Made by a program: the position numbers and the translations under genes
In this document: piece by piece, positions 1,634 to 58,900 of the stretch
Numbering within the stretch: position 1 is the stretch's first letter
Layout of the letters: each line of letters opens with the position of its first letter
Origin: a virus
Reading direction: 5' to 3' (one strand)
Virus record (IMG/VR): IMGVR_UViG_3300045988_108820
Location: 32,001-96,000 of that record
DNA: 64,000 nt
The notes under the pieces: model-generated
Database searches by the model: none
What the model was told of the DNA's origin: nothing
Seen by the model: only the letters and a program-made list of their open reading frames with translations

Positions 1634-1897
1634 GTTAAATAGGACAACCACTTAACCTATTATGGTACGATAAGTTTTTTTAATTACTCGCAGGGACGTA
1701 CTTTCAACTTAAACCCCGAAGTGGAAATTTTTATTTAGTTTTTATAATAATTAGTAATAATTTCAAAATCCTTTAAATTACTATACCTGGCTTCTATAAT
1801 AGTCATGCCAAAATACTTACTGAAATGTTTAGCGATTTTAATTGTTTCATAATAATTTAATTGATTTAGTTATTAATAAATGGTTAATTGTTTTGAG

Positions 1898-1971
1898 TAC
1901 TCCTTGTAGGACTTGAACCTACGACTCCCAAGGTATAAGCTTGGTGCTCTAACCGACTGAACTAAAGGAGT
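1898..1971 (-). tRNA. tRNA-Ile (anticodon TAT, reads ATA)
   Basis: Acceptor ACTCCTT/AAGGAGT, anticodon stem CCAAG/CTTGG with loop CTTATAC, T arm GTAGG-TTCAAGT-CCTAC. Confidence 0.88.
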
Positions 1972-1978
1972 AATTATA

Positions 1979-2035
1979 AACCTCTCAAGAGTACTATTTT
2001 TAATAATTAATTTAACTATTAAAACTTGAGAGGTT
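1979..2035 (-). other. long-loop hairpin (11-bp stem AACCTCTCAAG/CTTGAGAGGTT, about 35-nt loop) between gene 2224-2418 and tRNA-Ile
   Basis: Perfect 11-bp inverted repeat seen directly in the sequence. Its function (terminator or processing signal) is unknown. Confidence 0.35.
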
Positions 2036-2223
2036 TAAGTCAAACAGAGATACAATTAATAAAAGAATTTAATAAGAATAAATTACAGCTCATCTACATC
2101 TATCTGTTGATTTTGATATTTTAAAGTAATAAAATATCTCAGGGTTACTGACTTTTATTCACTACTATTAACCCTTTTTCGCTTAAATTCTTTTATCTTT
2201 AAAACTTTAGACTATTATTTCTA

Positions 2224-2423: not shown

Positions 2424-2732
2424 TTATAATTTTAATAACCTTTTAATTTTAGTCCATAATGAGCACTTTATAGATTTACTTTGTATGCCTTTGCCTGACT
2501 TTCTATTATTATAGATAGCATTTGGACTAACTACCATAAATGAAACTTTTAATTTTGAGGGATCTTTAGAAGGAGCTAGTACTTGATACCAATGTATTCT
2601 ACAAGCAGCTTCTGTCCTATTTAGATCTTTACTTACTTCCCTAAAAGCTTTATTAATGTTTTGAGGATAGGCTTCTATAGCCTGGACTAAAACTTTGTTT
2701 TCCTCATCAGTCCAATACTTTCTTTTTGTCAT
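2424..2732 (-). CDS. Myb/SANT-like single-repeat DNA-binding protein
   Basis: YWTDEENKVLVQAIEAYPQNINKAFREVSKDLNRTEAACRIHWYQVL fits the SANT/Myb pattern W-x2-EE-x2-L...RT-x3-C-x2-(R/H)W. Confidence 0.6.
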   Translation of the reverse strand: MTKRKYWTDEENKVLVQAIEAYPQNINKAFREVSKDLNRTEAACRIHWYQVLAPSKDPSKLKVSFMVVSPNAIYNNRKSGKGIQSKSIKCSLWTKIKRLLKL

Positions 2733-2768
2733 ACTTTATTACTTTGTTTCTTGTTTTTATTTATTTTG

Positions 2769-2840
2769 TACCCCTAGTAAGACTCGAACTTACATTTCAA
2801 GTTTAGGAAACTTGAGTTCTATCCTTTGAACTATAGGAGT
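2769..2840 (-). tRNA. tRNA-Arg (anticodon CCT)
   Basis: Acceptor ACTCCTA/TAGGGGT, D stem GTTC/GAAC, anticodon stem CAAGT/ACTTG with loop TTCCTAA, T arm GTAAG-TTCGAGT-CTTAC. Confidence 0.88.
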
Positions 2841-2846
2841 TAATAG

Positions 2847-2920
2847 TCTTCCCAGTGAGACTCGAACTCACAACTTATGCTTTAGAAGAGCATTACTCTA
2901 ATCCATTGAGTTATGGGAAG
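2847..2920 (-). tRNA. tRNA-Arg (anticodon TCT)
   Basis: Acceptor CTTCCCA/TGGGAAG, D stem ACTC/GAGT, anticodon stem ATGCT/AGCAT with loop CTTCTAA, T arm GTGAG-TTCGAGT-CTCAC. Confidence 0.9.
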
Positions 2921-2923
2921 ATA

Positions 2924-3038
2924 GTGCAGAGATTAGACTAAAAAATACTTAGTGCATTCTACTATGCTATCCATTCTATTGGCACAGGAGTTTGTCACCT
3001 GTTCTCTAAGTATTAGTTTTAGAAAAGAATCTCTGCAC
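2924..3038 (-). ncRNA. candidate structured RNA: 26-bp interrupted basal rod capped by three short hairpins (cloverleaf-like four-way junction)
   Basis: Nested perfect inverted repeats: GTGCAGAGATT (2924-2934)/AATCTCTGCAC (3028-3038), CTAAAA/TTTTAG, AATACTTAG/CTAAGTATT. Apical hairpins: GCAT..ATGC, CCA..TGG, ACAGG..CCTGT. It ends 3 nt from the tRNA-Arg(TCT) 5' end. Strand is inferred only from the flanking tRNAs. Confidence 0.45.
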
Positions 3039-3169
3039 ATGGCACGTGAATTTGTAATTTATAGGCAATACTAGACCTATAAATTTTGGTTCTACCTTTT
3101 ATTGTACAATTATTTTGATAGCCTGGAATTATTTGGATTTGGTAATTATAGTATTCTATTCCACCCATG

Positions 3170-3243
3170 TGGGCTAGTAGAGGATTGAACTCTAAACCTT
3201 CACAGTATCAGTGTGATGCTCTAACCAATTGAGCTACTAGCCT
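3170..3243 (-). tRNA. tRNA-Ile (anticodon GAT)
   Basis: AGGCTAG-TA-GCTC..GAGC, anticodon stem TCACA/TGTGA with loop CTGATAC, T arm TAGAG-TTCAATC-CTCTA, 3' acceptor strand CTAGCCC. This gives an A1-C72 mismatch. Confidence 0.85.
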
Positions 3244-3265
3244 ATAATGCTATTGTTTCACAACA

Positions 3266-3309
3266 ACAGCATTAATAAAACAGTATTAACAACCAAAACA
3301 GTATTAATA
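3266..3309. repeat. three direct copies of ACAG(C/T)ATTAA(T/C)A
   Basis: Copies at 3266-3277, 3280-3291 and 3298-3309, between the stop of gene 3344-3583 and the 5' end of tRNA-Ile(GAT). Confidence 0.5.
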
Positions 3310-5287: not shown

Positions 5288-5599
5288 TCAGAGTCCAAGG
5301 TCTACATCCTCCCAAGTGTCATGACCTGCCTTGCACAACTTGAAGTGTCCATTCTCCAGCTCAACCACTTGAAGTTCATCCTTCTGTGCTGCAATCTCTG
5401 CTGGAGTTAACTCACCAAGATTGCTACTAAAGGCTACCAAAGTTGTTACTTCATCAGAGTCAATGAATACACAACTCTTGAAATGCTCTCTGGTTTGCTT
5501 GTTGATGAATGGAGCTACTTTCATTCTGCCGTGAGTTTTAGCAAATGAGATTAATGACCGTGAGTTCTTGATACCTACTTCTGTTGCTGTTGTTGCCAT
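5288..5599 (-). CDS. hypothetical 103-aa protein, paralog B of a tandem pair
   Basis: ORF track. Full-length paralog of 4129-4440, also with elevated G+C. Confidence 0.8.
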   Translation of the reverse strand: MATTATEVGIKNSRSLISFAKTHGRMKVAPFINKQTREHFKSCVFIDSDEVTTLVAFSSNLGELTPAEIAAQKDELQVVELENGHFKLCKAGHDTWEDVDLGL

Positions 5600-5693
5600 A
5601 ATTATACATTTTAAGGGTTAATAATCAAAAGTATGTAAGAGTCATGCTAAGATTAGATACCTCAGCAAAGACCCCAGGGGATTATCCCCATTT

Positions 5694-5729
5694 CCAAAAG
5701 CTGGGTGGGGTGCTGTTGTAGATTATACC
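5694..5729 (-). promoter_or_regulatory. conserved upstream motif, copy 3
   Basis: The plus strand reads CCAAAAGCTGGGTGGGGTGCTGTTGTAGATTATACC, about 94 nt upstream of the ATG at 5599. Confidence 0.4.
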
Positions 5730-5778
5730 ACACTCCTACACATCAAATAAAAAAAAATAAAAAAAATTTCAAAAAAAA

Positions 5779-5810
5779 TTTGGTAATTACAAAAATTATC
5801 TATAACTTTG
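5779..5810 (+). promoter_or_regulatory. Bacteroidota-type promoter for the plus-strand tRNA array
   Basis: TTTG (5779-5782)-N20-TAACTTTG (5803-5810), preceded by long A-tracts. Confidence 0.65.
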
Positions 5811-5949
5811 CATAGTTAATTAATAATAATAGTCCCAACTATTAATAGTAATAACACTTAATGGGGCTTTAACCTTTCTGAGAGGTTGATGTTGTTTGTT
5901 GTTTGTGTTAATTAAACCTCCTTAATCTGGGAAGATGGAAGAGGTACAT

Positions 5950-6021
5950 GGAGCCATCATCTAATGGTTAGGATACAAGATTTTCAACCTTGAAATAGGG
6001 GTTCAATTCCCCTTGGCTCTT
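5950..6021 (+). tRNA. tRNA-Glu (anticodon TTC)
   Basis: GGAGCCA-TC-ATCT..GGAT, anticodon stem CAAGA/CCTTG (A-C at its base) with loop TTTTCAA, T arm AGGGG-TTCAATT-CCCCT, 3' acceptor strand TGGCTCT. Confidence 0.85.
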
Positions 6022-6025
6022 CAAT

Positions 6026-6099
6026 AGACTATGAAGTGTAATGGTTTTGCATACCACACTGTCAATGTGGTGGATGGGGTTCAATTCCCCCATAGTCTG
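6026..6099 (+). tRNA. tRNA-Asp (anticodon GTC); folds best with an 8-bp acceptor and 4-bp T stem
   Basis: AGACTATG/CATAGTCT, D stem GTGT/GCAT, anticodon stem CCACA/TGTGG with loop CTGTCAA, T arm GGGG-TTCAATT-CCCC. Confidence 0.8.
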
Positions 6100-6101
6100 C
6101 T

Positions 6102-6296
6102 ATGATAAAAATATTAAGAAAGGAGGGTTGGATATTAAACCCTAATGATAAAATAGTAAATGCTATTTTAAAAAGAGTAGAATTAAATAATGGAGAGTGT
6201 CCTTGTCAAAATGATAGTAGTGATAAGCATTGTCCATGTACAGATTATAGAGATAAAAACTTATGTCATTGTAATCTCTATATCAAGTCAGAGTAA
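6102..6296 (+). CDS. ferredoxin:thioredoxin reductase catalytic-subunit-like protein (64 aa)
   Basis: ILNPNDKIVNAILKRVELNNGECPC-x8-CPC-x8-CHC resembles the FTR catalytic chain signature (lnPd..v...gL...CPC-x16-CPC-x8-CHC), but the first spacer is shortened. The ATG lies 2 nt after the tRNA-Asp 3' end. Confidence 0.55.
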   Translation: MIKILRKEGWILNPNDKIVNAILKRVELNNGECPCQNDSSDKHCPCTDYRDKNLCHCNLYIKSE

Positions 6297-6318
6297 TATC
6301 TACTCTAGAACTAACTAA

Positions 6319-8610: not shown

Positions 8611-9016
8611 TATTAAACCATTATTTAATAAAATAGTAACTACTTGTGATGTTTATACATCAGATAAAACACAAGGAGGTATTATTTTAAAAACAAATGG
8701 CACAATTAAGGAGTATCAAAGGGTTGAAGCAATTGGTTCAACTGTAAGAGATATAAAGGTTGGAGACCTAGTACTTATTAATCCTAAGAGATACATTGTT
8801 CCTCAACATAGAGAGAAAAAAGATGAATCTCTGAGAGGTATTATTAGTGATGAATTAACCATGGATGTTGATTTTCCTATGGTTGAATATGGTGGTAAAA
8901 AACACTTACTCATTTATGATCAAGACATTGATTATATTATTGATGGAGAGGAAGTTAAAGATGAGCAACCTAAGTCCTCATTGATACTCCCAGAGGACAA
9001 GAAAATTATTGTTTAA
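8594..9016 (+). CDS. GroES/gp31-like co-chaperonin
   Basis: IKPLFNKIVTT...TQGGIIL...RVEAIGSTVRDIKVGDLVLIN...HLLIYDQDIDYII parallels E. coli GroES IRPLHDRVIVK...SAGGIVL...GEVLAVG...VKVGDIVIFN...VLIMSESDILAIV. Confidence 0.6.
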   Translation: MLKINSIKPLFNKIVTTCDVYTSDKTQGGIILKTNGTIKEYQRVEAIGSTVRDIKVGDLVLINPKRYIVPQHREKKDESLRGIISDELTMDVDFPMVEYGGKKHLLIYDQDIDYIIDGEEVKDEQPKSSLILPEDKKIIV

Positions 9017-9769: not shown

Positions 9770-10032
9770 TGAATATAATAAATAGTATAAATAATGTATT
9801 AACAAAGGGAGAATTATTATTACATATAGAACCAACTTCCACAGCTATAAAATCTGTGTTGAAAATTAACTATAAATTGTACATTCTAACTAAAGATAAT
9901 GAATCTCCAAAAGAGATTCTTTTCTTCTCTAGTACTCTAACACCTGGGAATGTAATAAGTGATTTAGATGAATGGGCTACTCAAGAGATACTTAAATTTG
10001 TTATACATGGAGGGTTAAGAGATTATGAATAA
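9766..10032 (+). CDS. hypothetical protein (88 aa)
   Basis: ORF track, with 4-nt and 8-nt overlaps with its neighbours. Confidence 0.55.
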   Translation: MMNIINSINNVLTKGELLLHIEPTSTAIKSVLKINYKLYILTKDNESPKEILFFSSTLTPGNVISDLDEWATQEILKFVIHGGLRDYE

Positions 10033-13000
10033 ATACCAAACAGAGTATTCTAAAGAATATATAGAGTCATTACCTAAAGAAGTTCAAGAACAATACTATG
10101 ACTTTATAACTAGTGTACCTTATATATCAAAGCTACTTTCTGATAATAGAAAGTATGCTAAAGATTTACCTAGAGATAATGAGGGAAAGATAATAATAGA
10201 TGTTACAGAACCACATATTTTAGAAAATACAGATTACTTTAGACCTAGTGCTATTCATTATCAACAATATGGTTGTTACACTAAATTAAAACCTAATGCT
10301 AATCCTAATAGTGAATATGGTAAATGGATTAGAGAAGAGGTTAGAAGGTGTTGGGAAGGTTATATTAGACCAGAAGATGGAGAATGGATAACAGGGGATA
10401 TGTATTTCTTTCTTAACTATTGTCCTATACAATTAATTAAAAAAGATAGTAATGGTAAGTCTATTAGAACTATTGACTTTCCTAAATTTTGGGATGGACA
10501 TTATTATAAATTTCATTATTTAAATCAATGTAGAAATGAAGGACATCATGCCGCAGAATTAGCTAGTAGAGGTAAGGGAAAAGCACACCCTTATAGCCAA
10601 AAAATATTAACTCCTTTTGGATGGAAATACTGGGGAGACATACAAATTGGTGACTATATTTATGGAGATAATGGAGAATTAACAAAAGTAGTAGATATTC
10701 CTTATGATGAAGTGTCTGATATATACACTGTTACTTTATTAGATGGTAGAAAAGTACAATGTACAAATGGGCATTTATTTAAAGTAAAGAATCATAAAAC
10801 AAAAAGAATAGAAATAAAACCTCTAATTGAAATTATTAAAGATTACAAGAGTACTAGAAAAGTATCTAATAAAACCCCAAATGGTATAGAATATAATTAT
10901 AGAATACCAAAAATTACTAATGCTGTTTACTTCCCTTCAAAGAGAGTACCAATAGACCCTTATACTTTAGGTTTGTTACTAGGTGATGGGTGCTTTAGAG
11001 TAATCTCAGCAAAGAACTATGTACTATTTACTTGTGATAAAGAAGATTATTACACTTATGAAGAAAACATACCTTACAAGATAGATAAAGTAACAAATAA
11101 TAATTATACTCATGCTATAAGATTTTCTGTAGAACCTTTAATTAATTATAAATTATATGGATTAAAATCAGAGCATAAATTTATACCTAGAGACTACCTA
11201 GTAAATGATAGAAATGTGAGATTAGAAATACTTAGAGGACTTATGGATTCAGATGGAACAGTGGATAAAACTTCTGGTATTCCTGTCTTTAGTACTACAT
11301 CTGAGAAATTAAAGGAGGATTTTATATTCTTATGTAGGTCTCTAGGATATAATGTATCTTGTTCTTTACATGATTCAAAATTTAATAATATAACATATAA
11401 AAGTCATTATAGAATTAGAGTTATAACAAATGACCCTATCTTTAAATTAGGAAGGAAATTAAAGTTACTTAATAATTTTACTTCTAGCTATGCTAAAAGT
11501 AAGAGAGATTATACTACAATTATAGATATTCAATACTCACATAAAGAACAAGCAAAGTGTATAACAGTTAATAACGAGTCACATTGTTATATAATAGGAG
11601 ATTTTGTAGTAACTCATAATTCATATAGTGCAGCATCAATGTTAGCTAAAAGATTTATACTAGGAGAATCTAATGATGTAAAGAAGAAAGTACAATGTGT
11701 TGCTACAGCTAGTGAGAGAAAATATATTCAAGGAGCTAACCAACTACTTGATATGTTTCAATACTACATTGATTTCTGTGCTAACAATACAGAGTTTCCT
11801 AGACAAAGAATCACTTCCTCTTTACAGAATTTAGCATGGACTATGGGCTATGTAGACTCTGAAACTAATACTAGGAGGGGAACTGAAAATAGTGTTATAG
11901 GTATTACTTCTAAGGATGATGAATCTAAGCTTAGAGGTTCTAGAGGTGTATTGTATCTTCTAGAAGAAGCAGGTTCATTTCCTAGACTATTAAATTTGTA
12001 TCAAGTGCTAAGACCATCTGTAGAAGATGGTAATAGTGTTTGGGGATTAATTTATTTATATGGTACAGCTGGTGATAGTGATTCTGACTTTAGTTCTATG
12101 CAAGAATTAATGTATAACCCTAAAGGTTATAATATTAAAGCAATAAATAATGTTTATGATAAAGAGGGTCAAGGAAGAAAGCAGTTTACATACTTTTTTC
12201 CTGGTTATATGAATAGAGCTGATTGTTATGATAAAGATGGAAATAGTGATGTCAATAAAGCCCTTATTGAAATACTTTTAGATAGGTATAAAGTAAAGTA
12301 TAATAGTACTGATATTAATGCAATTACTAAGAGAATTGCAGAAATTCCTATAACTCCACAAGAAGCTATATTAAAGACTAAAGATAATATATTCCCTATC
12401 ACAGAGTTAACTAAGAGACTTAATGAAATTGATAATAATCCTAATTTCTTTGATGATATTTATGTTGGAGATTTAGCTTTTAATAAACAAGGTAAAGTAG
12501 AGTTTAATGCTACAACTACAGACACTCCTATAAGAGACTTTCCTACTAAAGATAATAAAGTACAAGGAGCAATAGAAATATATGAAATGCCCCAAGAGAT
12601 ACATGGTAAAGTTCCTAATGAAAGATATATTTTATCACTAGATAACTATGAAAATGATCAAGCCCAATCAATGTCATTGGGTAGTGTATTTGTGCTAGAT
12701 CTATGGACTGATAGAATTGTAGCAGAATATACAGGAAGACCTATGTTTGTTGATGATTTAAATGAAATATGTAGAAAGTTATGTTTATTTTATAATGGTA
12801 AAGTGATGGTAGAAAATAATAAGAAAAATACCTTTGCCTACTTTAGTAAAATGAATAGTTTACATCTAATGGCTGATACTCCAGAATATCTTAAGAATAA
12901 ACAAATATTAAAAGTCAACACATTTGGTAATGCAAGTAAGGGATGTCCTGCTACAGTACCTGTGATTAATTTTTCTATGGAAAGATTAAGAGATTGGCTA

Positions 13001-13276
13001 CTAAAACCTGTAACTGTAACAGAAGAATCTAATGGGGAATCAATATCTACTACAATCCCCAATCTACACTTTCTAAAGAATAGAGCTTTAATTAAAGAAT
13101 TAATGCTTTATAATCCTGCTATTAATGTAGATAGAATTATGTCTATGTGTCAACTCATGTTATATAGAGAAGAAAAGATGATTCTTTATCAAGGAGAACC
13201 TAGAAGAGCAGAGAAAAGAATTGATTCTACTTATCTAGGAAATGATCCATTCTTTAATAAAAACTATAAACAGTAA
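10025..13276 (+). CDS. terL: terminase large subunit, interrupted by an intein
   Basis: Removing residues 187-532 rejoins the Walker A motif ASRGKGK|SYSAAS. A Walker B-like GVLYLLEEAG follows downstream. The gene sits directly upstream of the portal. The extein is 737 aa. Confidence 0.9.
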   Translation: MNKYQTEYSKEYIESLPKEVQEQYYDFITSVPYISKLLSDNRKYAKDLPRDNEGKIIIDVTEPHILENTDYFRPSAIHYQQYGCYTKLKPNANPNSEYGKWIREEVRRCWEGYIRPEDGEWITGDMYFFLNYCPIQLIKKDSNGKSIRTIDFPKFWDGHYYKFHYLNQCRNEGHHAAELASRGKGKAHPYSQKILTPFGWKYWGDIQIGDYIYGDNGELTKVVDIPYDEVSDIYTVTLLDGRKVQCTNGHLFKVKNHKTKRIEIKPLIEIIKDYKSTRKVSNKTPNGIEYNYRIPKITNAVYFPSKRVPIDPYTLGLLLGDGCFRVISAKNYVLFTCDKEDYYTYEENIPYKIDKVTNNNYTHAIRFSVEPLINYKLYGLKSEHKFIPRDYLVNDRNVRLEILRGLMDSDGTVDKTSGIPVFSTTSEKLKEDFIFLCRSLGYNVSCSLHDSKFNNITYKSHYRIRVITNDPIFKLGRKLKLLNNFTSSYAKSKRDYTTIIDIQYSHKEQAKCITVNNESHCYIIGDFVVTHNSYSAASMLAKRFILGESNDVKKKVQCVATASERKYIQGANQLLDMFQYYIDFCANNTEFPRQRITSSLQNLAWTMGYVDSETNTRRGTENSVIGITSKDDESKLRGSRGVLYLLEEAGSFPRLLNLYQVLRPSVEDGNSVWGLIYLYGTAGDSDSDFSSMQELMYNPKGYNIKAINNVYDKEGQGRKQFTYFFPGYMNRADCYDKDGNSDVNKALIEILLDRYKVKYNSTDINAITKRIAEIPITPQEAILKTKDNIFPITELTKRLNEIDNNPNFFDDIYVGDLAFNKQGKVEFNATTTDTPIRDFPTKDNKVQGAIEIYEMPQEIHGKVPNERYILSLDNYENDQAQSMSLGSVFVLDLWTDRIVAEYTGRPMFVDDLNEICRKLCLFYNGKVMVENNKKNTFAYFSKMNSLHLMADTPEYLKNKQILKVNTFGNASKGCPATVPVINFSMERLRDWLLKPVTVTEESNGESISTTIPNLHFLKNRALIKELMLYNPAINVDRIMSMCQLMLYREEKMILYQGEPRRAEKRIDSTYLGNDPFFNKNYKQ
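10583..11620 (+). mobile_element. intein (346 aa) with a LAGLIDADG homing-endonuclease domain, inserted in the TerL P-loop
   Basis: N-terminus AHPYSQKILTPFGW (Ala1 in place of Cys/Ser), block B TNGH, LAGLIDADG motifs LGLLLGDGCF and LRGLMDSDGTV, block F-like AKCITV, C-terminus VVTHN followed by Ser+1. Confidence 0.85.
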
Positions 13277-31997: not shown

Positions 31998-32683
31998 TGG
32001 AAAGATATATATCAATAAAAGAAGTTTTAGATAACTTACTTGACAATCCATTACTACAGGATTTGACTCTTGAAAGAGTTGTCAACTATACAATTGATTT
32101 TATACGAAAGGTAGGTATGCCTAAAGTATATATAGAGAAAACAGCAAATCTTGAAGTTAAAGAATATAGAGCATTACTTCCTTGTGATTTTCATAAAATG
32201 ATTCAAGTGAGAACTTTTAAGGAGGGTTGTAGTCAAACATTTAGAAGTTCTACTGATAATTTTCATTTCTCTAATAATAAGAGGAACTCACATGACTTAA
32301 CCTATAAATTACAAGGTCAGGTTATTTATACCTCTATAAAAGATGGTACAATAGAAATAGCTTACCAAGCTATTCCTGTTGATTGTGATGGTTATCCAAT
32401 GATAGCTGATAATAGTTCCTTTAGGGAAGCATTAGAGCTTTACATTACAAAGAGAAGATATAAAGTACTATTTGATATAGGTAAAATTAGAGGTGATGTT
32501 TATAGTTCTACTTGTCAAGATTATGCCTTTGCTGTAGGTCAAGCTCAAACAAGTTTAATAATGCCTACAATTGATGAAATGGAATCAATTACTAACTCTT
32601 GGAATACATTAATTCCTAGAGTTACAGAGCATAGAATGGGATTTATTAATAATGGTTCAAAGGAGACCCTTAAACAACAATAA
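31997..32683 (+). CDS. tail-module protein (228 aa)
   Basis: ORF track, with an ATGA-type overlap. Confidence 0.55.
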   Translation: MERYISIKEVLDNLLDNPLLQDLTLERVVNYTIDFIRKVGMPKVYIEKTANLEVKEYRALLPCDFHKMIQVRTFKEGCSQTFRSSTDNFHFSNNKRNSHDLTYKLQGQVIYTSIKDGTIEIAYQAIPVDCDGYPMIADNSSFREALELYITKRRYKVLFDIGKIRGDVYSSTCQDYAFAVGQAQTSLIMPTIDEMESITNSWNTLIPRVTEHRMGFINNGSKETLKQQ

Positions 32684-49057: not shown

Positions 49058-52000
49058 TTACTTTTGTAAATTGTTCTTTTCAAACACTTGGAATACACCA
49101 TTATCAGTATCCATTTCATTAAGTTGTTCAATTTGTCCGTAAAATGGAATTAAATACTTTTGAATGTTTCTAAAGTATTTATTTTCCCCCTTATGCTTAC
49201 CAGACTTAATTGTGTCATTAATATCTCCAATACCAGCAAATGGGTATAAAAAGGAATTAACTACATTAGATGCAGCTATAGGACTGTTTATTAGAGTATT
49301 CATTTCCATAGGAATACCCCATGGAGTTGAACCATTTATATCTGTAATAGCTCTCTTTGTTTGATATATCCACATCCTTGTCCAAAATTCTTTCTTATGG
49401 TCATCAGGTTCACCGAGAGCAAATGATAATGTAAGAAGACTAGATAATACAAGTATTTCAGATAGTGCTCTTCTACAATTAGCTTTTTGCATAGGATTCA
49501 TCTCATTCCAATGCAACATTGATTCTCTTTGAAACCTAAATATATCCCCAGCCATAGCATAAGCAAACTTAGAAGCTGTGTTATAATATCCCTCTCTATT
49601 TTCTCCAAGAGTAGCATCATAATGAGAACTCCTAAATCTTCTAGAGTAGTGTTCAACCATCCATTGCCTTAAATTCATTATAAATCTACCAGCCATGTGT
49701 TGATGAATTAAACCTTTGTCTTCTTCATTCATAGCACCATGGGTAGTTTGATTTACATATCTAATTCTTTTTCTAATCTTCTCTAAAAAGGCATCATCAA
49801 TAGGAACTTCTTGACCATTATCATCAGTATATGTAGCATTTTTATCAATTATTAGTTCAGAATTACCATCTACCTTATTACCTACAGAGAATACATCATA
49901 AAGGGATTTAGTTTTTCCATTTATTTTAATCTTAGTATTATGTAATACAGCATACATATTTACAAAGTGAATTAAGTGTTCACCTGCCCCATAACCTATG
50001 AATGAGAAGTTCTTTCCCAAAAGATGTCTTAGTGGTCCTCTGTAATATCTTTGATGCTGTAATTCTCCAAAATTTTCATTTAATGGATCAAATATTTGTG
50101 CTAACAATACTGATTTACTATTAGTATTATTAGTCATAAAGTCCATTATTCTTCCTACAGAGCCTTTAATATTATCACCAAAAACTTTCTTATGTGCCCA
50201 TGCATAATCAATAGGATTATAAAACTCCATAGCCCCAGACTCTACTAACATTTGAAGTTCACCTACTAGGTAGTTAGATATAGCTCCTTTAACATTAACA
50301 GCCAAACTCTTTAAAGAAGTATATGCAAGTAGATTCTTCAGTAACATGTGATATTTTCCAGGGTTTTTAATATTAACACCATATATAAATTTATCAACAA
50401 ATCCATCAACAATACCAATAGTATTAGAATTACTTGCAAAAGCTCTTAATTGTTTATAAACCCTAATACCTGTATCTTCTACCATATCTAGACTTTTATA
50501 GTTCCTTCCAGCAGCTACTTCTTGGTCTTTAATAAAATCAGCCATAAATTCAACAGTGTCTTTAATATTATTCATAGCCTCATAGTTTATTGCAGTTCCT
50601 GCTAAGTGTTGTATAGCACTAGAGAAATCTTTCAGTAGTTCTCCTTTATCTTTAATCTTATTGATATAGAATATAGGTATTTGTCTAAATGGAGTATTAT
50701 CTAATGCTCCACTAACTATGTTATATTCTTCTCCATTTACTATACCATTATTTGCATATCTATCATCATCTTCTCTTATAGTAGTAAAGTCTTTAAGTTT
50801 TGTTCTAATAGCTTTTATTAAATCTCTAAGACTTCCCTTCTTAACAGCAGCTTTCATAGCATCCACAAAGGATCTCCTAATTTGAGGAGGTACAAATTGT
50901 CTTTGAGCATAATTAGGTAATAAGGTTCCTAATTCTCCTTTTATTTGCATCATTGTTTCATAATACTCCTGTTGCTCACTAGTTAATTTAGGAAATGCTT
51001 TTCTATATGTGGAATTAGGAACTCTCTCAGTTCTGCCACTTACTAAATCTACAACTCTATCCTCTGTATTAGCTTCTTCCCAATTTTTTATAGCTTCATC
51101 TACAGATAGACCTCTAGTTCCTTGCCCTATTAATCCTTTTCTAAAATTAGCTCTAGCTTTATAATAAGCAGTCCAATCAATATCACTTATGATATAACCA
51201 TTAGGCTCATACATAAAGTCACTCTTAAAACCTGCTTTTCTGAGTTTATGTTCTGCTCTTCTTATTCTAAGAGATATAGCATTCATCTTAGCATCCCTAG
51301 AAGATTGAGCATCTCTTATAATGTTACCCATAGTAGCAATTAATGGGTTAGAAACTCTTCCAATACTATATAAATAGTCATAGATAGTAGAGTCTTTTTC
51401 AGCCATTTCAACTATATTAACTACAGACATGCCATTAGAAAGTTTATCTCCTAAATATTCAGTAGCTATAGTAGTCATAGTATTTAGTCTTAACTCCCTT
51501 AGAGTTTTATCATGTTTATCAAAGAATTCTACTAGTTTAGTAGCTTGATCTTTTATAATTTGTTTATCAGTATCACTAAGTCTTTCATCTGAGATAATAC
51601 TATCAATATTAGACAATGATGTAAGAATGCTTTTATAACCATCAGTAATAGATTTAACCTGCATTAGTGACTTAGCTATAGCAGAAGCTCTCTCTAGATT
51701 ACTTCCAGATTGTGGAGTATTCTGGAGGATTTTTTCCACTTCTTGTATTTGTGTAGATGCTTCACTAAGAAATCCTAGAATACCAACATAGTATCTATTA
51801 CTATTAATTTCCTTCATAAGTGTATGCAAAGACTGTTCCAATCTAGTAGTTTCAGGGGTTATTCCCTGCTCTGCTTTCATCTTTTTGAGCTGTCTTTGTA
51901 ATGTTATAGCAGCTTCTGATGCTGCTTGAGATAAACTCCTTATATTATTTCCAACTAGTACTACTTCATTAAAGTCTAGATTATATTTCTTATTTAGTGC

Positions 52001-52903
52001 TTTTATTGTATCTTCTATCTTACCTTCTTCTGAATTTCCAATTGCCTGTTCTACACTCTCTATTTGTTGTGAAACTGCATTAATATCAAGTCCATTATAC
52101 TTTTTACAATTATTTAATGTAGCATCTATTAAGGCTTTTTGAGAAGCTGTTACTCCACCAACTCTATAAGAGTCATATATTTTTTGAGCAACTTCTTCCA
52201 ATGTGCCAAACATTTGCTTAAGTCTTTGTACTTGACTACTTGATTCATTAAATACTAGAAGGTCTTTAATCTCTTTTCTGTCAAGAAACTTATTATCAGT
52301 AAATTGTACATTATGCATTTGAAGTATAGCATTTCTAGCATTAGCTGCATTATATACTGATTTATTAACATCAGCAGATTCAATGTCTATACCAACATTA
52401 TTTAAAGATTGTTTTAATATATCCCATTGTTGTAGTTGCTTTTCAACTTGAGCACTTCTTAATTGTGTTCTTGAGTTTCTCACATCTACTACAATATTAA
52501 ATTTATCTCCTCCAGAATAGACAGCAGCTACAGTACCTTTACTAGAATTATTATGACGCTGTGCTATATCAAGGGCATCTTTAGCATTAGTATAATCAAT
52601 AGGATTTCCTGAGAAATCAGTAGCTCCTATTGTTCTTGATACTTCACTTACCTTTCCTTCTGTAGATTCCCTAATAAATGACATTACATCTAGGTACTTT
52701 TCTACATCTGCAATCTTATGTTCACCTTGGTCATTTCTAGAATAACCTAGGCTATCCATCTGTGCAGCTACCCCCGATTGGAGGTAGACTGCATAGATGT
52801 AATTAGCCTTTGGTCTATTCCCTGTGACTTTAAGTAACTCCTTATAGAGTTTACTAGGTTTACCCTGTATTGTAGGGTATAATTCACATGAATTTTTAGC
52901 CAT
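49058..52903 (-). CDS. large virion/cargo-type protein (1281 aa), co-transcribed with the RNAP polyprotein
   Basis: Uninterrupted ORF. Its ATG directly abuts the stop of the upstream 3115-aa ORF. Confidence 0.7.
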   Translation of the reverse strand: MAKNSCELYPTIQGKPSKLYKELLKVTGNRPKANYIYAVYLQSGVAAQMDSLGYSRNDQGEHKIADVEKYLDVMSFIRESTEGKVSEVSRTIGATDFSGNPIDYTNAKDALDIAQRHNNSSKGTVAAVYSGGDKFNIVVDVRNSRTQLRSAQVEKQLQQWDILKQSLNNVGIDIESADVNKSVYNAANARNAILQMHNVQFTDNKFLDRKEIKDLLVFNESSSQVQRLKQMFGTLEEVAQKIYDSYRVGGVTASQKALIDATLNNCKKYNGLDINAVSQQIESVEQAIGNSEEGKIEDTIKALNKKYNLDFNEVVLVGNNIRSLSQAASEAAITLQRQLKKMKAEQGITPETTRLEQSLHTLMKEINSNRYYVGILGFLSEASTQIQEVEKILQNTPQSGSNLERASAIAKSLMQVKSITDGYKSILTSLSNIDSIISDERLSDTDKQIIKDQATKLVEFFDKHDKTLRELRLNTMTTIATEYLGDKLSNGMSVVNIVEMAEKDSTIYDYLYSIGRVSNPLIATMGNIIRDAQSSRDAKMNAISLRIRRAEHKLRKAGFKSDFMYEPNGYIISDIDWTAYYKARANFRKGLIGQGTRGLSVDEAIKNWEEANTEDRVVDLVSGRTERVPNSTYRKAFPKLTSEQQEYYETMMQIKGELGTLLPNYAQRQFVPPQIRRSFVDAMKAAVKKGSLRDLIKAIRTKLKDFTTIREDDDRYANNGIVNGEEYNIVSGALDNTPFRQIPIFYINKIKDKGELLKDFSSAIQHLAGTAINYEAMNNIKDTVEFMADFIKDQEVAAGRNYKSLDMVEDTGIRVYKQLRAFASNSNTIGIVDGFVDKFIYGVNIKNPGKYHMLLKNLLAYTSLKSLAVNVKGAISNYLVGELQMLVESGAMEFYNPIDYAWAHKKVFGDNIKGSVGRIMDFMTNNTNSKSVLLAQIFDPLNENFGELQHQRYYRGPLRHLLGKNFSFIGYGAGEHLIHFVNMYAVLHNTKIKINGKTKSLYDVFSVGNKVDGNSELIIDKNATYTDDNGQEVPIDDAFLEKIRKRIRYVNQTTHGAMNEEDKGLIHQHMAGRFIMNLRQWMVEHYSRRFRSSHYDATLGENREGYYNTASKFAYAMAGDIFRFQRESMLHWNEMNPMQKANCRRALSEILVLSSLLTLSFALGEPDDHKKEFWTRMWIYQTKRAITDINGSTPWGIPMEMNTLINSPIAASNVVNSFLYPFAGIGDINDTIKSGKHKGENKYFRNIQKYLIPFYGQIEQLNEMDTDNGVFQVFEKNNLQK

Positions 52904-55900
52904 TTAGCAAAGTTTTTTATATTCTTCTTCTATAGTTTTTTCATCAAATTTAATTCCAAGAACTTCAAGTCTAGATTTCATGAACTTCTTAACTTGTGAT
53001 TCAATAGCCTTCTTAAACTCATTGTCCATATTTTTATAATTTTGGATAGTACTTTCTGCATCTGCAAGTGTTTTACCCTTCGTCATATATATTTGGTGTA
53101 ATAAGTCTATTTGCTCTTGTTCACTATTAGTAGATTCATCTAACTTAGTTTCTCTATCCACATCTGGATTATTAATCTCTGATTTTGTATTATCTTCCAA
53201 GGATACTGAAGGAATCTCAAGAGGTTTCTCAATTCCATCAATGCTAATCTCTAGATAGTCTTTGTTACTTCCAAGAGGATTAATTTCTTTGTACTCAATA
53301 GATTCATCTTTTGATAGAACTTGCTGATATAATTTATCAACATTATCTACTCTCATTTTAAAATATTGAGTTTTCTGAAGATCTTTAACATCACTCTCTT
53401 TATATACTTCAAAGTTACCATTCTCAAGCTTTCTCATAACAAGATTTTTCTTTCTAGGAACAAGCTTGTTATTGTCCCAGTTATTTCTAATAAACTGGTC
53501 AAGGACTATCTCAGGTGTGCTACTTGGGAGTACTCTAAATGTATCAACATAACTACTAAGTCTCTCTTTCACATATACAGGAACTAAACTCATAAAGGTT
53601 TTAGGAGAAAATCCTATTCCAGCTCTAAAGAAACAGTACTTAAAGAGTTTTTCAGATAATTCTGGATTCACTCTATGAAGGTCAATCCAAGCACTACTTA
53701 GTCTTTCTTTTTGTAGAATATCAAGACCAGTAATATCAACCTGAAGAGTGGCTCTACCTCCTTTATCAGTTCCATATTTTATAGACTGAATGAGAAGATT
53801 ATTTTTATACTGTTCTTTGTAGTTTTTCTCCATAAACTCCTTAGGGAACTCTGATATAGTTTTACCTAAATCATTTGATTTTACTACATTACCTGCTACA
53901 ACAAGATAGGACTGATAGAAGTCACTTAAACTACTAAGAATTTTTCTATCACCGAGAATAACATCACCTATTGGATTTTCACTAGCATAAGTGAGGATAT
54001 TTCTAAATCCTGTACTATTAGCTGGCATACTACTAAATAAGCCTTGTGCTATTCCTAATGTTTTTCTAAATTGATTTAGAATAGGATGTGCAAGGAAGAT
54101 ATCATTAATACTAATTTCCTCTCCATCTGAGCCAAGAATATTACTCTCAGAAGAAAGCTTTTCCATTTTATGCTCGGTGATTAAATTATCAATAATCAAT
54201 GGACCCACTGCACTACTTATTGAGTTAAATCTAGTAGCAAATGTAGGCATCCTCATAGCGTCAGCAAGTCTTTGAAAGTTTCTAAATGACTTAAGAACTT
54301 TGTATTCAATTCTTGAATCCCTTGATTTTACACCTTTAATTAATTGCTCTCTAGTAAGTTCTTCTTCATTAAGTAAACTATTCTCATCAATATTTAGATC
54401 TTTCTCTATTTTCTTTATCCTATTTTCAACTACTTTACTTAAAGAAGTAAATCCTGTGATATTTTCACTACTAAATTGATTAAGAACATCTGATATAACT
54501 CTTTGAGATAAGAAGAGAGCAGCATCATCAAAAGGCATTCCAAGTCTTACAAGAGTATTAAGAATATTAGCTGTATTACTATTAATATTCATCAAGTTAA
54601 GTACAGGATCTTTAACAGCATCAGCTGCACTAGCAACTAAACTACCAAGTACTTTACCAACTGATTGTCCACTATTATCAAGTCTAACATCAATAGGCAT
54701 ATTACCTCCAAAAGTCATATCTGCTACAGTAAATGGTCTAGTAAGGTTACATGCATTATCTACATTCATCATATATCCTTCATTCTCTATTACTGCATGA
54801 GCAGTTCTATTAACTGCAAAGATACCAATAAGAGAACCAGCAGCACTATTTTGTTTGTAGAATTGTATATGAGTATCAATAAACATAAGATTCTTATCTT
54901 TACTACTTAAATCCTTGAGTTCATCAATAGACATCTTACTTAATTCATCATAGCTTTTGTCAGTAGTTCTAAGAGCAGTTACAAGATAACCCATTCTCTT
55001 TTGTGGGTCAAAGCCACCTGGATTTAGCATTTCTGCACAACTAGTTTCATGTGTTAATACCTCATAAGTCATATCAACAATCTTATTATTTCTATAAGTT
55101 CTTCCTTCTGTAGGTTTATTAACAGTAAAAGCATTTTGTAAATATAACTTAAGTAACTTACTATAAGAATTACTAGGAATTGACATGAATCCTTCAGCTG
55201 TCTTTTGATTAACTAGAGAGGCTCTATCAAATGGGTCTTCAAGAAATTGTCTAACCAAATCATTAAGTTTGCTTTTAACATTATAACTTAGTTTCCCTTT
55301 TTGAGACTCAACTAGAGAATCATATAATATTTTATGAAGAGCAGATTTAGTAATTTTATTTTTAGAAATACTGTAATCTTTTCTCATAAGATACTCCTTA
55401 TCAACATCAAAGTCTGAACCTGTGAGTAGTGTAATATCACTAGGTAACATAATACCATCACCAGCTTCTCTAGGTAAGAAACCCACAATCTTCAAAGGAG
55501 CCATACTATATTTAGCTTCAGTAGGAATTCTATAGCCAATCATCTTTAATAAATCAGGGTCAAGAGCTTCCAATGCTTCTATGCTAATGTTACCATTCTT
55601 ATCAGCGAATTGACTGAATAGATTGTTAGCATATATAGGAGCAAATACCTCAAAGTAAGCAATACCTCCTTGATTTTCTTTTATATAATCTTTATAGGAC
55701 ATTGTACCTTCAGAAACCTTTAATCCTTTGTATTTAGCATTAAATTTATCAGTTTGAGAAAGTTCTTTCTTTATAGGATTTTTTTCATATTCTGCTCTTG
55801 TTTTTAATAAACCTCCATTCTTGTCTTTAAATCTAATATTAAGTTCTCTAGAAGTACCAAAGTTAGTAACCTGTACAACAGGACCACCAGCTATTTCTTG

Positions 55901-58900
55901 TTTATTAACTCTATTCTTTATAACAGAGTTGACTAATTGTTCAACTCTTTTACTCTGAATAGGATCTCCAAGAGGTATTCTAAATCTACCATTTTCATCA
56001 ACCGAACAAGCTTGTAAGAGATCTATACCATATCTAGGACTGGATAATATTTCTCTTTGTAATATCTTACTAAGAGCTATATTTCTATCTTTTGTATTAG
56101 TACTTTGAAGACCTAGAGCACTCTCTAAACCACTTATACTATCTTCAATATTATCTGCAATAGTTTGTTCATACTCAGACTTAAATTCATCAGCAGATAT
56201 TTTTTTACCTTCAACTTCATAGGTTGCATCATTTCCAAAGCTATCTTTTGTAGCAAGTTCTGATACTACAATATATCTCAATTGGGAGCCATGAACTTGC
56301 TCATGATTCTTAAAGTGCTCAGGCACTTCTTGTTGTAAACAATAGTCTTCAAAAGGTAGCTCTTGAACATAAGTTTGATTATATTTACCTGTTTTGGTAT
56401 CTATAGTCACATCCTCAAGTTTTCCAGTCTCTTGGTTAGTTCTTTGGATTGTTTTAGGAGCTGTCTCATATATACAAGCCTCCATAACAGCTTTGGCTTT
56501 AGCTTCTCCATTGACATCATTAATATATTTATTAAGATTAATTCTGCCCATTAAGCCAGACTTTACAGTTGACTCAAACTGAACAGTATCAATACCATCT
56601 GTCTTATAGTTACCATCTTCATCATAGTGACTTTCTTCCATTACTTCATAGATTGCTCTAAGTAGGTTTGGTCTACCAGTGTTCTCATTTTGAAGAATAG
56701 CATCAGCCATTATAAGAAGATATTCAGAGTTTTTATTCTGTACAGGTATTTTAAGCTTATCAAGGGGAGCATTAGGTACACCAGAAGACTTTTCTATTTG
56801 ACTATAAACAAAGGGCTTTAGTGGTTGAAACGCTACACTTAGATCACTATAATTGTAATCTCCCTTTCTAAGTTTTTGATATATTTCTTCTGCCTTTTTA
56901 CTCCATTTACCAAAAATAAATGCTTTCTTTCTATATGATGTTGGAGAAGAATATCCTTGAGCATCTGCTACATTTATTTTTCTAAATGCACCATCTTTAC
57001 CTACAAGAGAGTCTTTTAATACTCTATAACCATCTTTTTCAGCTTCTGGAGCTTCAGCTATCTTTCTATCAAAAACAATTGATACATTGTCAATGATATT
57101 AGATACAAAGTCATCCCAGTCTTTAAGATAGAAGGTTCTTTCCTTTCCATCAGAGACTTTACTACCTTCATAGTCTGTAGCATCTACATTACCTCTTATA
57201 CCTGGAGCATGGATTTGTGCTAATCTCTTTTGTAAATCTTCTGCATCCTTATAATAGGCAATATCAGTTACAGTTAATTCCATTATGTTCATAGCTGCAA
57301 AAGTATCATTCCAAACAAAGTTTTCAAGATTAGATTTAATCTCTTCCTCTGTAGTACCAATACCTGAGATTTTCTTAGCTCCTTCCATAAGACCAGAGTT
57401 AATCCAATTCTCTACAATGGATTTAGCTCTAGTGTCTAAAGTATCAAAGATAGCTTTATTAGCAAGTTCATATAACTTAGCTTCATCTACTTCTTTACCA
57501 TTGATTTTATTGTTTATAAGTTTACCTAATTCACTATTCTTTTTATCTCCAGTAAGATAATCATTCATAAAGTCAAGGAAGCAGAACTTTTTACCATTTT
57601 TATCAAAATTCTTTATGAATCTTGGACCTTTACTATCGAGGTTTCTCATCAGTACGGTTTGGATTCTACTTAACTCTTGATTAAATATGTCCATCATACC
57701 ATCTGTAATAGTTTCTCTATAGTTAATACCTCTTTCACTATAAAACCTTATGAATTCAGAAGATGGCTTATTAGATAACATAGGCACCCTAAACCAAGCA
57801 GGTACTCTTGATTGTTTATCATTTGCACCTTCTGAAAAATACTCTGTAAGTAATGAGAGTGCATACTCCATATCACTCATATTCTTCATATAATTGTGCT
57901 TATTGAAACTGAGTTGTACTTTATGTTTAAAAACACTTCTAGCTTTACTATCAGTAGCTAAAGTTCTAAGCCAACTGTTTCTCCAACCTCTTTCAATATC
58001 TGTGCCTTCATGAAACCATGGTTGGTTTGCATACTCCTCGGTCAGAAAGTCATCAAAAGCCTGTCCCTCTTGACTAAATTTTTGCATTAACTTAGACATA
58101 TAAGAAGGAGTTACATAACTTTGATACATTTTACCATTATCATAAAAGGCAGAAATTGCAATATCTTCTAAGTGTTCTGTGATAGGCTTTAAGAACTCTC
58201 TCATATTACCATTGATACTATCTTTAGCCTTAAACTTGAAAGGTTCATAAGAAGCATTATCAAGATTATTTTCAAAAGATCTTATCATGTATCCTAAAGC
58301 ACTATACATCTTTTTAAAAGTTTCACTCGTAAGATTACTCTTTACCATATCAGGAGTTACATAATAACCAAATAAGCTTGAAATATAATCTAAAGTATTA
58401 GCAACTTCATCTTTATCAACTTCTTTAGATAAATCATATCCTGTATGCCTAAACTTTTCAAGACTGTCATAAGCAGATTTAAGTTCTCCAAATGATTTTT
58501 TATTTATACCCTCAGTAGTAAATAATGGATGTTCTCCTATTTTATACTGAGTTGTGACTTGCGTCATGGCTTCACTAAGAGCAGGATTTTCATTTACTGA
58601 AATACTTTTATATTTTCCATCTTCTTCAATTACTGTTGAATATGATTGAAATGGCTTAAAGAATGTTCCGTAGAATTGACTCTGAAAATCAGTCTCTTTA
58701 CCAGAAGTATCAGATAATCTATCAATAAGTTGTTTAACCCAAGGATTATCTTTCTGCTTTCCTTGTAATTTAGTTATTGCACTAGCCAAACTTAATGAGC
58801 CTTGTGTCCATCTAAGTATAGAATTAGTTGCTTCTCTTACATTTATTCTTTCATTGATACCAAACTCTGATTGTACATTGTTCCCATCTTTATCAAGAAT

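Follow-up and report, generated by a model that had tools for sequence, protein, structure and literature searches.

A 71-nt four-way-junction RNA module with a permuted tRNA-like layout in phage tRNA arrays

YrlA is a Y RNA (Rfam RF02553) whose helices follow the order V, T, AS and D and are closed by a Ro-binding stem, with the Ro-binding motif GNCGAAN0-1G in the terminal helix (Chen et al. 2014, PMC4201824). It adjoins the rsr gene, which encodes the TROVE-domain protein Ro60, and some YrlA RNAs are phage-encoded. The present analysis concerns a structured element of 115 nucleotides (nt) in the minus-strand tRNA array of IMG/VR virus record IMGVR_UViG_3300045988_108820; positions 32,001 to 96,000 of that record, a 64-kb stretch of a genome of ~99 kb, were analysed and are referred to as the window. 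An earlier note, made from these letters alone, had proposed that the element is a tRNA-mimicking or Y-RNA-like small RNA. The host phage is crAss-like, as indicated by a Crass_capsid match (E 9e-188) and by crAss auxiliary capsid and cargo proteins among the open reading frames (ORFs) of the window, and its closest GenBank relatives are IAS virus and cr116_1, both Steigviridae/Asinivirinae. Within the element lies a 71-nt module, recognizable in two further phages, whose helices are arranged in the order of a circularly permuted tRNA.

The module fits among the tRNA-like small RNAs of phages and bacteria, and a different described system is closest to it in each respect. By layout this is YrlA. 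By niche it is the pair of T4 species 1 and 2 RNAs (rnaC and rnaD), small stable non-tRNA RNAs of 139 and 119 nt that likewise belong to the tRNA cluster of a phage and to the strand of its tRNAs, where they come immediately after tRNA-Arg; to our knowledge, their function has yet to be established. Circularly permuted tRNA genes are found in the red alga Cyanidioschyzon merolae. The module resembles them in having the T-arm side first, an acceptor closed by a linker and the D-arm last, and it differs from them in that the hairpin at the acceptor position has 3 base pairs (bp) in two of three members and in that an anticodon loop is absent. We know of no bacterial or phage machinery that would re-circularise a permuted tRNA-like module. 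By adjacency to tRNA, the closest systems are the theta ribozymes of gut phages, minimal ribozymes of the hepatitis delta virus (HDV)-like type that sit within a few nt of tRNA genes (PMC10879173).

Fold and conserved core of the element

Homolog comparison indicates that the conserved unit is a 71-nt four-way junction in which a 9-bp stem closes three hairpins, and not the 26-bp rod, which the earlier note had stressed. The inner 9-bp stem and the junction recur in distant copies, and the outer 11+6 bp are confined to the window lineage, with no counterpart in the other two phages; the full rod is a closing-stem extension specific to that lineage.

Re-reading of the sequence gives the same letters at 2924-3038 as those quoted before, and minimum free energy (MFE) folding returns the nested-repeat structure as it had been described. 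On the minus strand, an 11-bp stem is followed by a 5x3 internal loop, a 6-bp stem, a 2-nt bulge and a 9-bp stem, and the last of these closes the hairpins ACAGG-9-CCUGU, CCA-6-UGG and GCAU-6-AUGC. The MFE of -37.4 kcal/mol compares with -20.65 +/- 3.33 kcal/mol for 200 dinucleotide shuffles (z -5.03), none of which folds as well, in line with the expectation that the fold would outperform such controls. The plus strand gives a mirror fold (-36.4 kcal/mol, z -5.09). An MFE scan of 8,518 windows of 115 nt over the 64 kb finds few regions that match the element's fold strength. Perfect 11-bp inverted repeats alone are not rare, since the window holds 13, against 6.0 +/- 1.8 in Markov-1 simulations; it is their nesting that gives the fold its significance and makes it exceptional.

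The first distant copy comes from an exact-word scan of IMG/VR with the third hairpin, GATAGCATAGTAGAATGC, which matched one contig of 125 kb (L143). Positions 1729-1799 of this contig score 66 bits (E 8e-16) under R1, the covariance model made from the window element, and 99 bits under R2, the model of the 71-nt module by itself; only the inner 71 nt (window 2944-3014) are shared. The 9-bp stem is almost wholly rewritten in L143 and still pairs perfectly, and hairpins 1 and 2 carry one A-U to G-C swap each; RNAalifold counts compensatory changes at 8 of 22 pairs. The junction segments J1 (AGA), J2 (G) and J3 (AUA) and the entire hairpin 3 are unchanged; the hairpin-1 loop, listed as UGNCAAACU for the window core module, has one change. 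The earlier note had looked to relatives for conservation and covariation. Because a distant homolog with compensatory changes exists, both are found, although the closest crAss-like relatives lack the element.

A search with R2 over 0.9 Mb of phage loci gives one further candidate (28.5 bits, E 1.6e-4), at 8856-8938 on the minus strand of L089, the T5-like Pectobacterium phage My1, where it occupies an unannotated gap of a minus-strand tRNA array. It is a probable third member of the family. When the My1 copy is folded alone, hairpin 3 and the middle hairpin appear together with the closing stem, and its G-U pairs work in the tRNA-sense reading only. No relative of it was found by blastn against other GenBank phages. 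In the alignment of the four distinct sequences, paired cells make up 97.5%, compared with 25-39% when partners are slid by 1-3 columns, and 11 of 21 pairs are changed on both sides; none of 500 shuffles reaches the observed pairing and covariation values.

In all three loci, the module lies on the strand of the flanking tRNA or transfer-messenger RNA (tmRNA) genes. ARAGORN coordinates place the end of the window element 3 nt from the 5' end of tRNA-Arg(TCT), as the earlier note had stated, and this placement 5' of an RNase P substrate recurs in L143, where the module ends 5 nt before a tmRNA gene and shares its strand with that gene and with tRNA-Leu. The L143 module overlaps the stop codon of an upstream S-adenosylmethionine (SAM)-methyltransferase gene, relatives of which (60-78% identity) are without the module; in L144 and L145, the methyltransferase gene is followed directly by tRNA-Leu. 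The L143 tmRNA (1805-2135, plus strand), which lies between the module and tRNA-Leu, carries the tag GETTYRMAA*, and the relative L144 has neither module nor tmRNA.

Neither ARAGORN nor the Rfam tRNA model RF00005 calls a tRNA on either strand of the element, which has no anticodon arm, in agreement with the view that it is not a tRNA. The Infernal search suggested earlier places no YrlA, tRNA or other family on it: Rfam at the gathering threshold and at E<=10 returns tRNAs only. At E<=10, no family falls on any copy in window 2700-3300, L143 1650-1880 or L089 8780-9020, and no Rfam family and no published description of the 71-nt module was found. By these comparisons, the element appears to belong to a small RNA family not previously catalogued.

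Table 1. Features of the element, parts of the module, positions in the tRNA-like layout, and related contigs. Positions refer to the window.
Feature	Position	Strand	Content or basis
Whole 115-nt element: 26-bp interrupted rod and four-way junction	2924..3038	(-)	fold -37.4 kcal/mol, z -5.0
Conserved 71-nt core module	2944..3014	(-)	homologs in L143 and, probably, My1; covariation
5' arm of outer rod: 11-bp strand, CUUUU loop, 6-bp strand, CU bulge	3015..3038	(-)	paired in fold
3' arm of outer rod: 6-bp strand, UCU loop, 11-bp strand	2924..2943	(-)	fold, homolog comparison
tRNA-Arg(TCT), directly downstream of element	2846..2920	(-)	ARAGORN, Rfam
tRNA-Ile(gat), upstream side	3169-3243	(-)	ARAGORN
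Structured spacer after tRNA-Ile, outside element, marking the insertion boundary	3039..3168	(-)	conserved in relatives
Window module, 5'->3'			stem AAUACUUAG, AGA, ACAGG-UGACAAACU-CCUGU, G, CCA-AUAGAA-UGG, AUA, GCAU-AGUAGA-AUGC, A, stem CUAAGUAUU
L143 module, 5'->3'			stem CCAAUCUAA, AGA, GCAGG-UGUCAAACU-CCUGC, G, CCG-GUAAAA-CGG, AUA, GCAU-AGUAGA-AUGC, G, stem UUAGAUUGG
My1 copy, closing stem			AGCAUCAAG / CUUGGUGCU, one U-G pair
My1 copy, inner parts			AGA; hairpin with loop GGUCAUAAC; longer middle hairpin (two G-U, GAGA loop); GUA; GCAU-AGUGAA-AUGC; G
Layout: terminal stem			anticodon-stem place
Layout: AGA (3 nt)			variable-region place
Layout: 5-bp hairpin, G-C next to loop			T-arm place
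Layout: short closed hairpin			acceptor place
Layout: UA, then 4-bp hairpin GCAU-AGURRA-AUGC, then purine			D-arm-like
L003, 100% identity	2700-3300		element present
L004, 99.8% identity	2700-3300		element present
L014, L015, 97.7% identity	2700-3300		element present, two substitutions
tRNA(CAT)-to-tRNA-Arg(TCT) slot in L008, L133, L134			conserved 115-nt spacer, abuts tRNA-Arg directly
Same slot in L125, L126, L136			~50 nt
Same slot in L034, cr116_1, L131, L137			small ORFs
Same slot in IAS virus			extra tRNA and ORF
Same slot in L029 (flanks 94-96% identical)			ORF, tRNA-Arg, HNH endonuclease (phrog_2255, E 5.6e-25)

Layout compared with tRNA, YrlA and other phage RNAs

Read from its 5' end, the module runs through the parts of a tRNA in circularly permuted order (Table 1). 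The segment UA-GCAU-AGURRA-AUGC-R is conserved in all three loci, and on established tRNA numbering its hairpin would fit the D-arm invariants U8, A9, G10-C25, C11-G24, A14, R15, A21 and R26.

The likeness to YrlA is one of architecture. In both RNAs, the 5' and 3' ends pair into a terminal stem that closes hairpins in identical order, including UA and a 4-bp D-arm-like hairpin; both have a 5-bp hairpin at the T position and a closed hairpin at the acceptor position, their sizes are similar (~70-115 nt), and the module, like some YrlA RNAs, is carried by phages. The differences lie in sequence and context. The T-position loop of the module has 9 nt (UGACAAACU, UGUCAAACU or GGUCAUAAC) and no T-loop consensus of the GUUCGAAUC type, its D-loop has 6 nt and no GG, and it resides inside tRNA arrays and not beside rsr. 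The covariance model RF02553 matches none of the three module copies (cmscan, E<=10), and its match in the window region (25 bits) falls on two true tRNA-Arg genes only. GNCGAAN0-1G is absent from the rod strands of the window element. No TROVE or rsr gene was found among the ORFs tested in the window, which comprise the nearest gene (Myb-like), three small neighbours with no Pfam match and ten large ORFs. Membership of the YrlA family is rejected on RF02553, T-loop, Ro motif and nearby rsr, with agreement in helix order and the D-arm-like hairpin. Of the earlier tRNA-mimicking or Y-RNA-like proposal, the YrlA-type helix order of a tRNA-like domain and the D-arm invariants are retained and family membership is not.

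The T4 RNAs differ in structure from the module. T4 rnaC has a tRNA-like T-arm of canonical sequence (CCGGGUUCGAAUCCCGG); the module has no such T-arm, and its helix order differs. Homology to rnaC or rnaD is also rejected at the sequence level, where blastn-short returns only 7-nt chance words. Theta ribozymes are double-pseudoknotted self-cleavers, in contrast to the unknotted four-way junction of the module, and the ribozyme families of Rfam give no match on the three module copies (E<=10). Scanning for promoter and terminator consensus sequences gave nothing informative; the sigma-70 consensus is ill-suited to Bacteroidota.

Distribution in relatives and other RNAs of the tRNA array

Close relatives of the locus, five contigs in all, were reached through the neighbouring Myb-like protein, by copies that are either exact or 94-95% identical. 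The element itself is 98-100% identical in L003, L004, L014 and L015, and the full 115 nt are confined to contigs at least 97.7% identical over window 2700-3300. One of the two L014/L015 substitutions lies in the loop of the middle hairpin, and the other is a G to A change in the 3' strand of the 9-bp stem. These contigs are uninformative on selection because two changes in 115 nt are close to the flank rate.

Some 20 other related loci, to which a conserved spacer motif and a 103-amino-acid protein family led, share the frame tRNA(CAT) ... tRNA-Arg(TCT) ... tRNA-Arg(CCT) ... Myb-like gene, and none carries the element. It is missing from the same slot in L008, L133, L134, L029, L030-34, L125-137, IAS virus and cr116_1, where other material is found (Table 1). 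In L029, the closest relative without the element, positions 5303-6268 replace window 2768-3168 with ORF118, tRNA-Arg(TCT) and an HNH endonuclease on the opposite strand, and the points at which homology stops are the 3' end of tRNA(CAT) and a place within tRNA-Arg(CCT). The tRNA genes appear to act as recombination anchors in cassette exchange.

Compared with the empty-site alleles of L008, L133 and L134, this locus is longer by 131 nt, made up of ATTCACGTGCCAT, the element and TAT, and its tRNA-Arg(TCT) allele differs from theirs; no target-site duplication is present at the junction. The element was acquired by recombination at a hot spot of cassette exchange and not by transposition, probably along with the tRNA-Arg allele. 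A donor of the linked allele was not found in IMG/VR, and the Myb-like neighbour as a route gives homologs only at 94-95% identity. Since the element is missing from the closest relatives at a slot that exchanges cassettes, it behaves as a sporadically transferred RNA gene.

Wider searches for the whole element return no further copy. The pattern of its arms, GTGCAGAGATT...AATCTCTGCAC, finds only unrelated inverted repeats in IMG/VR, GTDB genomes and JGI metagenomes. Matches of the element by blastn against GenBank phages (E<=10) are only 21-29 nt long and were rejected; the best four (H39, H53, H54 and H55) lie inside protein-coding genes and fail model R2, marking them as chance. A repeat of 123 nt that has long terminal inverted repeats (...GGGGACGTTCGTGCAGAGATTGC...) is present in L017, L018, L020, L021, L022, L024 and L025. 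These cover several contigs of a Desulfobacteraceae metagenome-assembled genome (MAG), one MAG of Phycisphaerae and two metagenome contigs, and the repeat often lies at a contig end. It was rejected as a relative of the window element, with which it shares by coincidence the 11-nt arms only.

The same array holds a second non-tRNA structured RNA at window ~2059-2197 (minus strand), between tRNA-Ile(tat) at 1897-1971 and an ORF at 2224-2418. A 15-bp closing stem surrounds a conserved core, GCGAAAAAGG-GUUAAUAGUAG ... CAGUAACCCUG ... GAGCUGUAA, which follows the pattern CGAAAAAGG-GUUAAYAGUAG-helix-CAAACCAGUAACC ... GCUGUUAGG-helix and is common to Lak megaphages, T4-like phages (PM2, mogra), T5-like phages (Stubb, My1, KpGranit) and no fewer than 36 IMG/VR loci, most often within tRNA arrays. 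The fold includes a pseudoknot, whose long-range helix covaries (26 distinct helices among 32 sequences; mean 6.4 bp, compared with 4.2 +/- 0.19 bp for permuted partners), and the RNA exists in circularly permuted forms. L029 shows two compensatory changes in it, and L016 is without 124 nt of it. It matches no Rfam 15 family, is neither T4 rnaC nor rnaD and has no core motifs in common with the 71-nt module, with which it shares one array in My1 as well as in the window. The second RNA is the stronger of the two and may be of more general interest than the 115-nt element.

The spacer next to the element keeps 82-92% identity in IAS virus, L008, L133 and L134. Its fold has three helices and shows five compensatory pairs among three sequences, and its 11-bp hairpin, AAUUUAUAGGU-CUAGUAUU-GCCUAUAAAUU, has G-U pairs in the tRNA sense. 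The tRNA beyond it (3169-3243) has the anticodon GAT (Ile), and its orthologue has CAT (annotated tRNA-Ile2/Met) in every relative examined, including L014; the difference is a single-base anticodon switch within a near-identical lineage.

The strongest local fold of the whole window lies at 52690-52870, where a long imperfect hairpin, close to where two giant minus-strand ORFs meet (49058-52903 and 52904-62251), reaches -57 to -60 kcal/mol over 181 nt on both strands and -48.8 kcal/mol over 115 nt. The region between divergent minus- and plus-strand gene blocks at 5600-5949 also folds strongly on both strands (z ~ -3.4), and the gap after tRNA-Asp at 6101-6318 (plus strand) has a fold with z -5.1 that overlaps a 64-amino-acid ORF. 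A plus-strand ORF of 1083 amino acids at 10025-13276 contains LAGLIDADG and Hom_end homing-endonuclease domains at residues 388-481, which is suggestive of an insertion of intein type within a large structural or packaging gene.

Competing readings and biological meaning

The element is probably, if by no wide measure, a functional small RNA of permuted tRNA-like layout that is processed along with the tRNAs. An RNA read from the tRNA strand is favoured because orientation is constant in three unrelated phages, the My1 G-U pairs are confined to the tRNA sense, and the module lies inside units for stable RNAs. The element would be co-transcribed on that strand in a polycistronic tRNA precursor, and an RNase P cut at the adjoining tRNA, or at the tmRNA in L143, would free its 3' side. 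The mechanism taken as most likely is mimicry of tRNA shape, in which the RNA would bind or titrate a protein that recognises the tRNA elbow or D-arm; such a function is much less certain than the overall small-RNA reading. In the window lineage, the terminal stem has been lengthened to the 26-bp rod, and the whole unit behaves as a cassette that passes between unrelated phages, from one tRNA array to another, through recombination at tRNA genes. The fuller proposal, in which an undescribed family of permuted tRNA-shaped RNAs hops among phage tRNA arrays and acts as a Ro60-free tRNA mimic, perhaps a decoy that draws off host defence nucleases aimed at tRNA or an adaptor for enzymes that process or modify tRNA, is tentative and rather doubtful.

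Several observations weigh against a functional RNA of this kind. All 38 of the 38 base pairs in the window copy are Watson-Crick with zero G-U, so this copy gives no strand signal, and the L014/L015 stem change yields C-A in the tRNA sense and U-G in the antisense. The closest relatives of all three host phages do without the module, which makes it dispensable. In the My1 copy, hairpin 1 contains one mismatch and hairpin 2 is much longer; the next tRNA is 122 nt away, so that an RNase P site does not adjoin every copy. The independent sequences number three, one of them weak; the four-sequence alignment was fitted to the model, and the model E-values are rough. The tRNA elbow may not form because the 9-nt T-position loop is without a T-loop consensus, and the module goes unmatched by the Rfam YrlA and tRNA models. 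Transcription of the element is a prediction from its sequence context.

Among the alternatives, a processing or stability element is unlikely though the most plausible: the rod would be an RNase III-type signal or a 3'-end protection with no function as a free RNA. The rod's 11-bp stem, 5x3 internal loop and 15 further bp recall the architecture of phage T7 RNase III sites; the window copy has a processed unit on either side and an RNase P site 3 nt away, and the overlap of the L143 copy with a stop codon fits a 3'-end structure. As double-stranded RNA for RNase III, the window copy offers 26 bp with one internal loop and one bulge, and L143 and My1 offer ~9-12 bp. Against this reading, the rod is not conserved beyond the 9-bp stem, and the conserved junction bases, the hairpin-1 loop and the invariant hairpin 3 would be left unexplained by generic double-stranded RNA or a protective hairpin. 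An unrecognised catalytic RNA that aids maturation of the neighbouring tRNA or tmRNA is quite improbable. It would be in keeping with the highly conserved junction nucleotides, with an end 3-5 nt from a tRNA or tmRNA 5' end in two of three loci, and with the precedent of tRNA-adjacent theta ribozymes in gut phages (PMC10879173), but the ribozyme search described above is empty, an unknotted junction is not the nested double pseudoknot of HDV-like ribozymes, and RNase P already explains tRNA 5' maturation. A true Y RNA, that is, a YrlA orthologue working with Ro60/Rsr, is the least likely reading of all. Helix order, the D-arm-like hairpin and a long terminal stem with internal loop and bulge are alike, yet the YrlA model finds real tRNAs and not the element, there is no GNCGAAN0-1G, no T-loop and no TROVE gene among the tested ORFs, and the homologs are without the long stem.

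Two further readings were weighed. That the element is a selfish or neutral insert, a palindromic mobile element or a hot-spot scar with the RNA fold as by-product, is improbable. Its occurrence in near-identical contigs only, the many relatives that lack it, the varying cargo of the slot, including the L029 HNH endonuclease, and the want of G-U pairs in the window copy would all agree with such an insert. A miniature inverted-repeat or other small transposable element is nevertheless rejected, given the single copy in the window, the missing target duplication and arms that are not conserved in homologs and lead only to unrelated repeats; nor can a scar explain covarying stems and conserved loops across unrelated phages. 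A cruciform or hairpin bound as DNA by a replication, recombination or packaging protein is very unlikely. It would account for a window copy that folds equally well on both strands and for the L014 stem substitution, which keeps pairing on the plus strand only, but not for My1 G-U pairs that function in the tRNA sense only, for an orientation to tRNA genes that is constant in three unrelated phages, or for a place within the units from which stable RNAs are transcribed.

The tRNA arrays of phages are usually taken as lists of tRNAs, and the array in the window also holds conserved, uncatalogued structured RNAs. The carriers of the module are a human-gut crAss-like phage, a T5-like phage of a plant pathogen and a large uncultured phage; because it is common to these three unrelated phages, the module appears to have spread horizontally with its fold kept. 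It adds a case beside T4 rnaC and rnaD to the old question of what role non-tRNA stable RNAs play in phage tRNA clusters. If the module does act as a Ro60-free tRNA mimic, it would represent a new means by which phages engage the host tRNA machinery or tRNA-directed defences, and it would offer a short, concrete RNA on which such mimicry may be tested.

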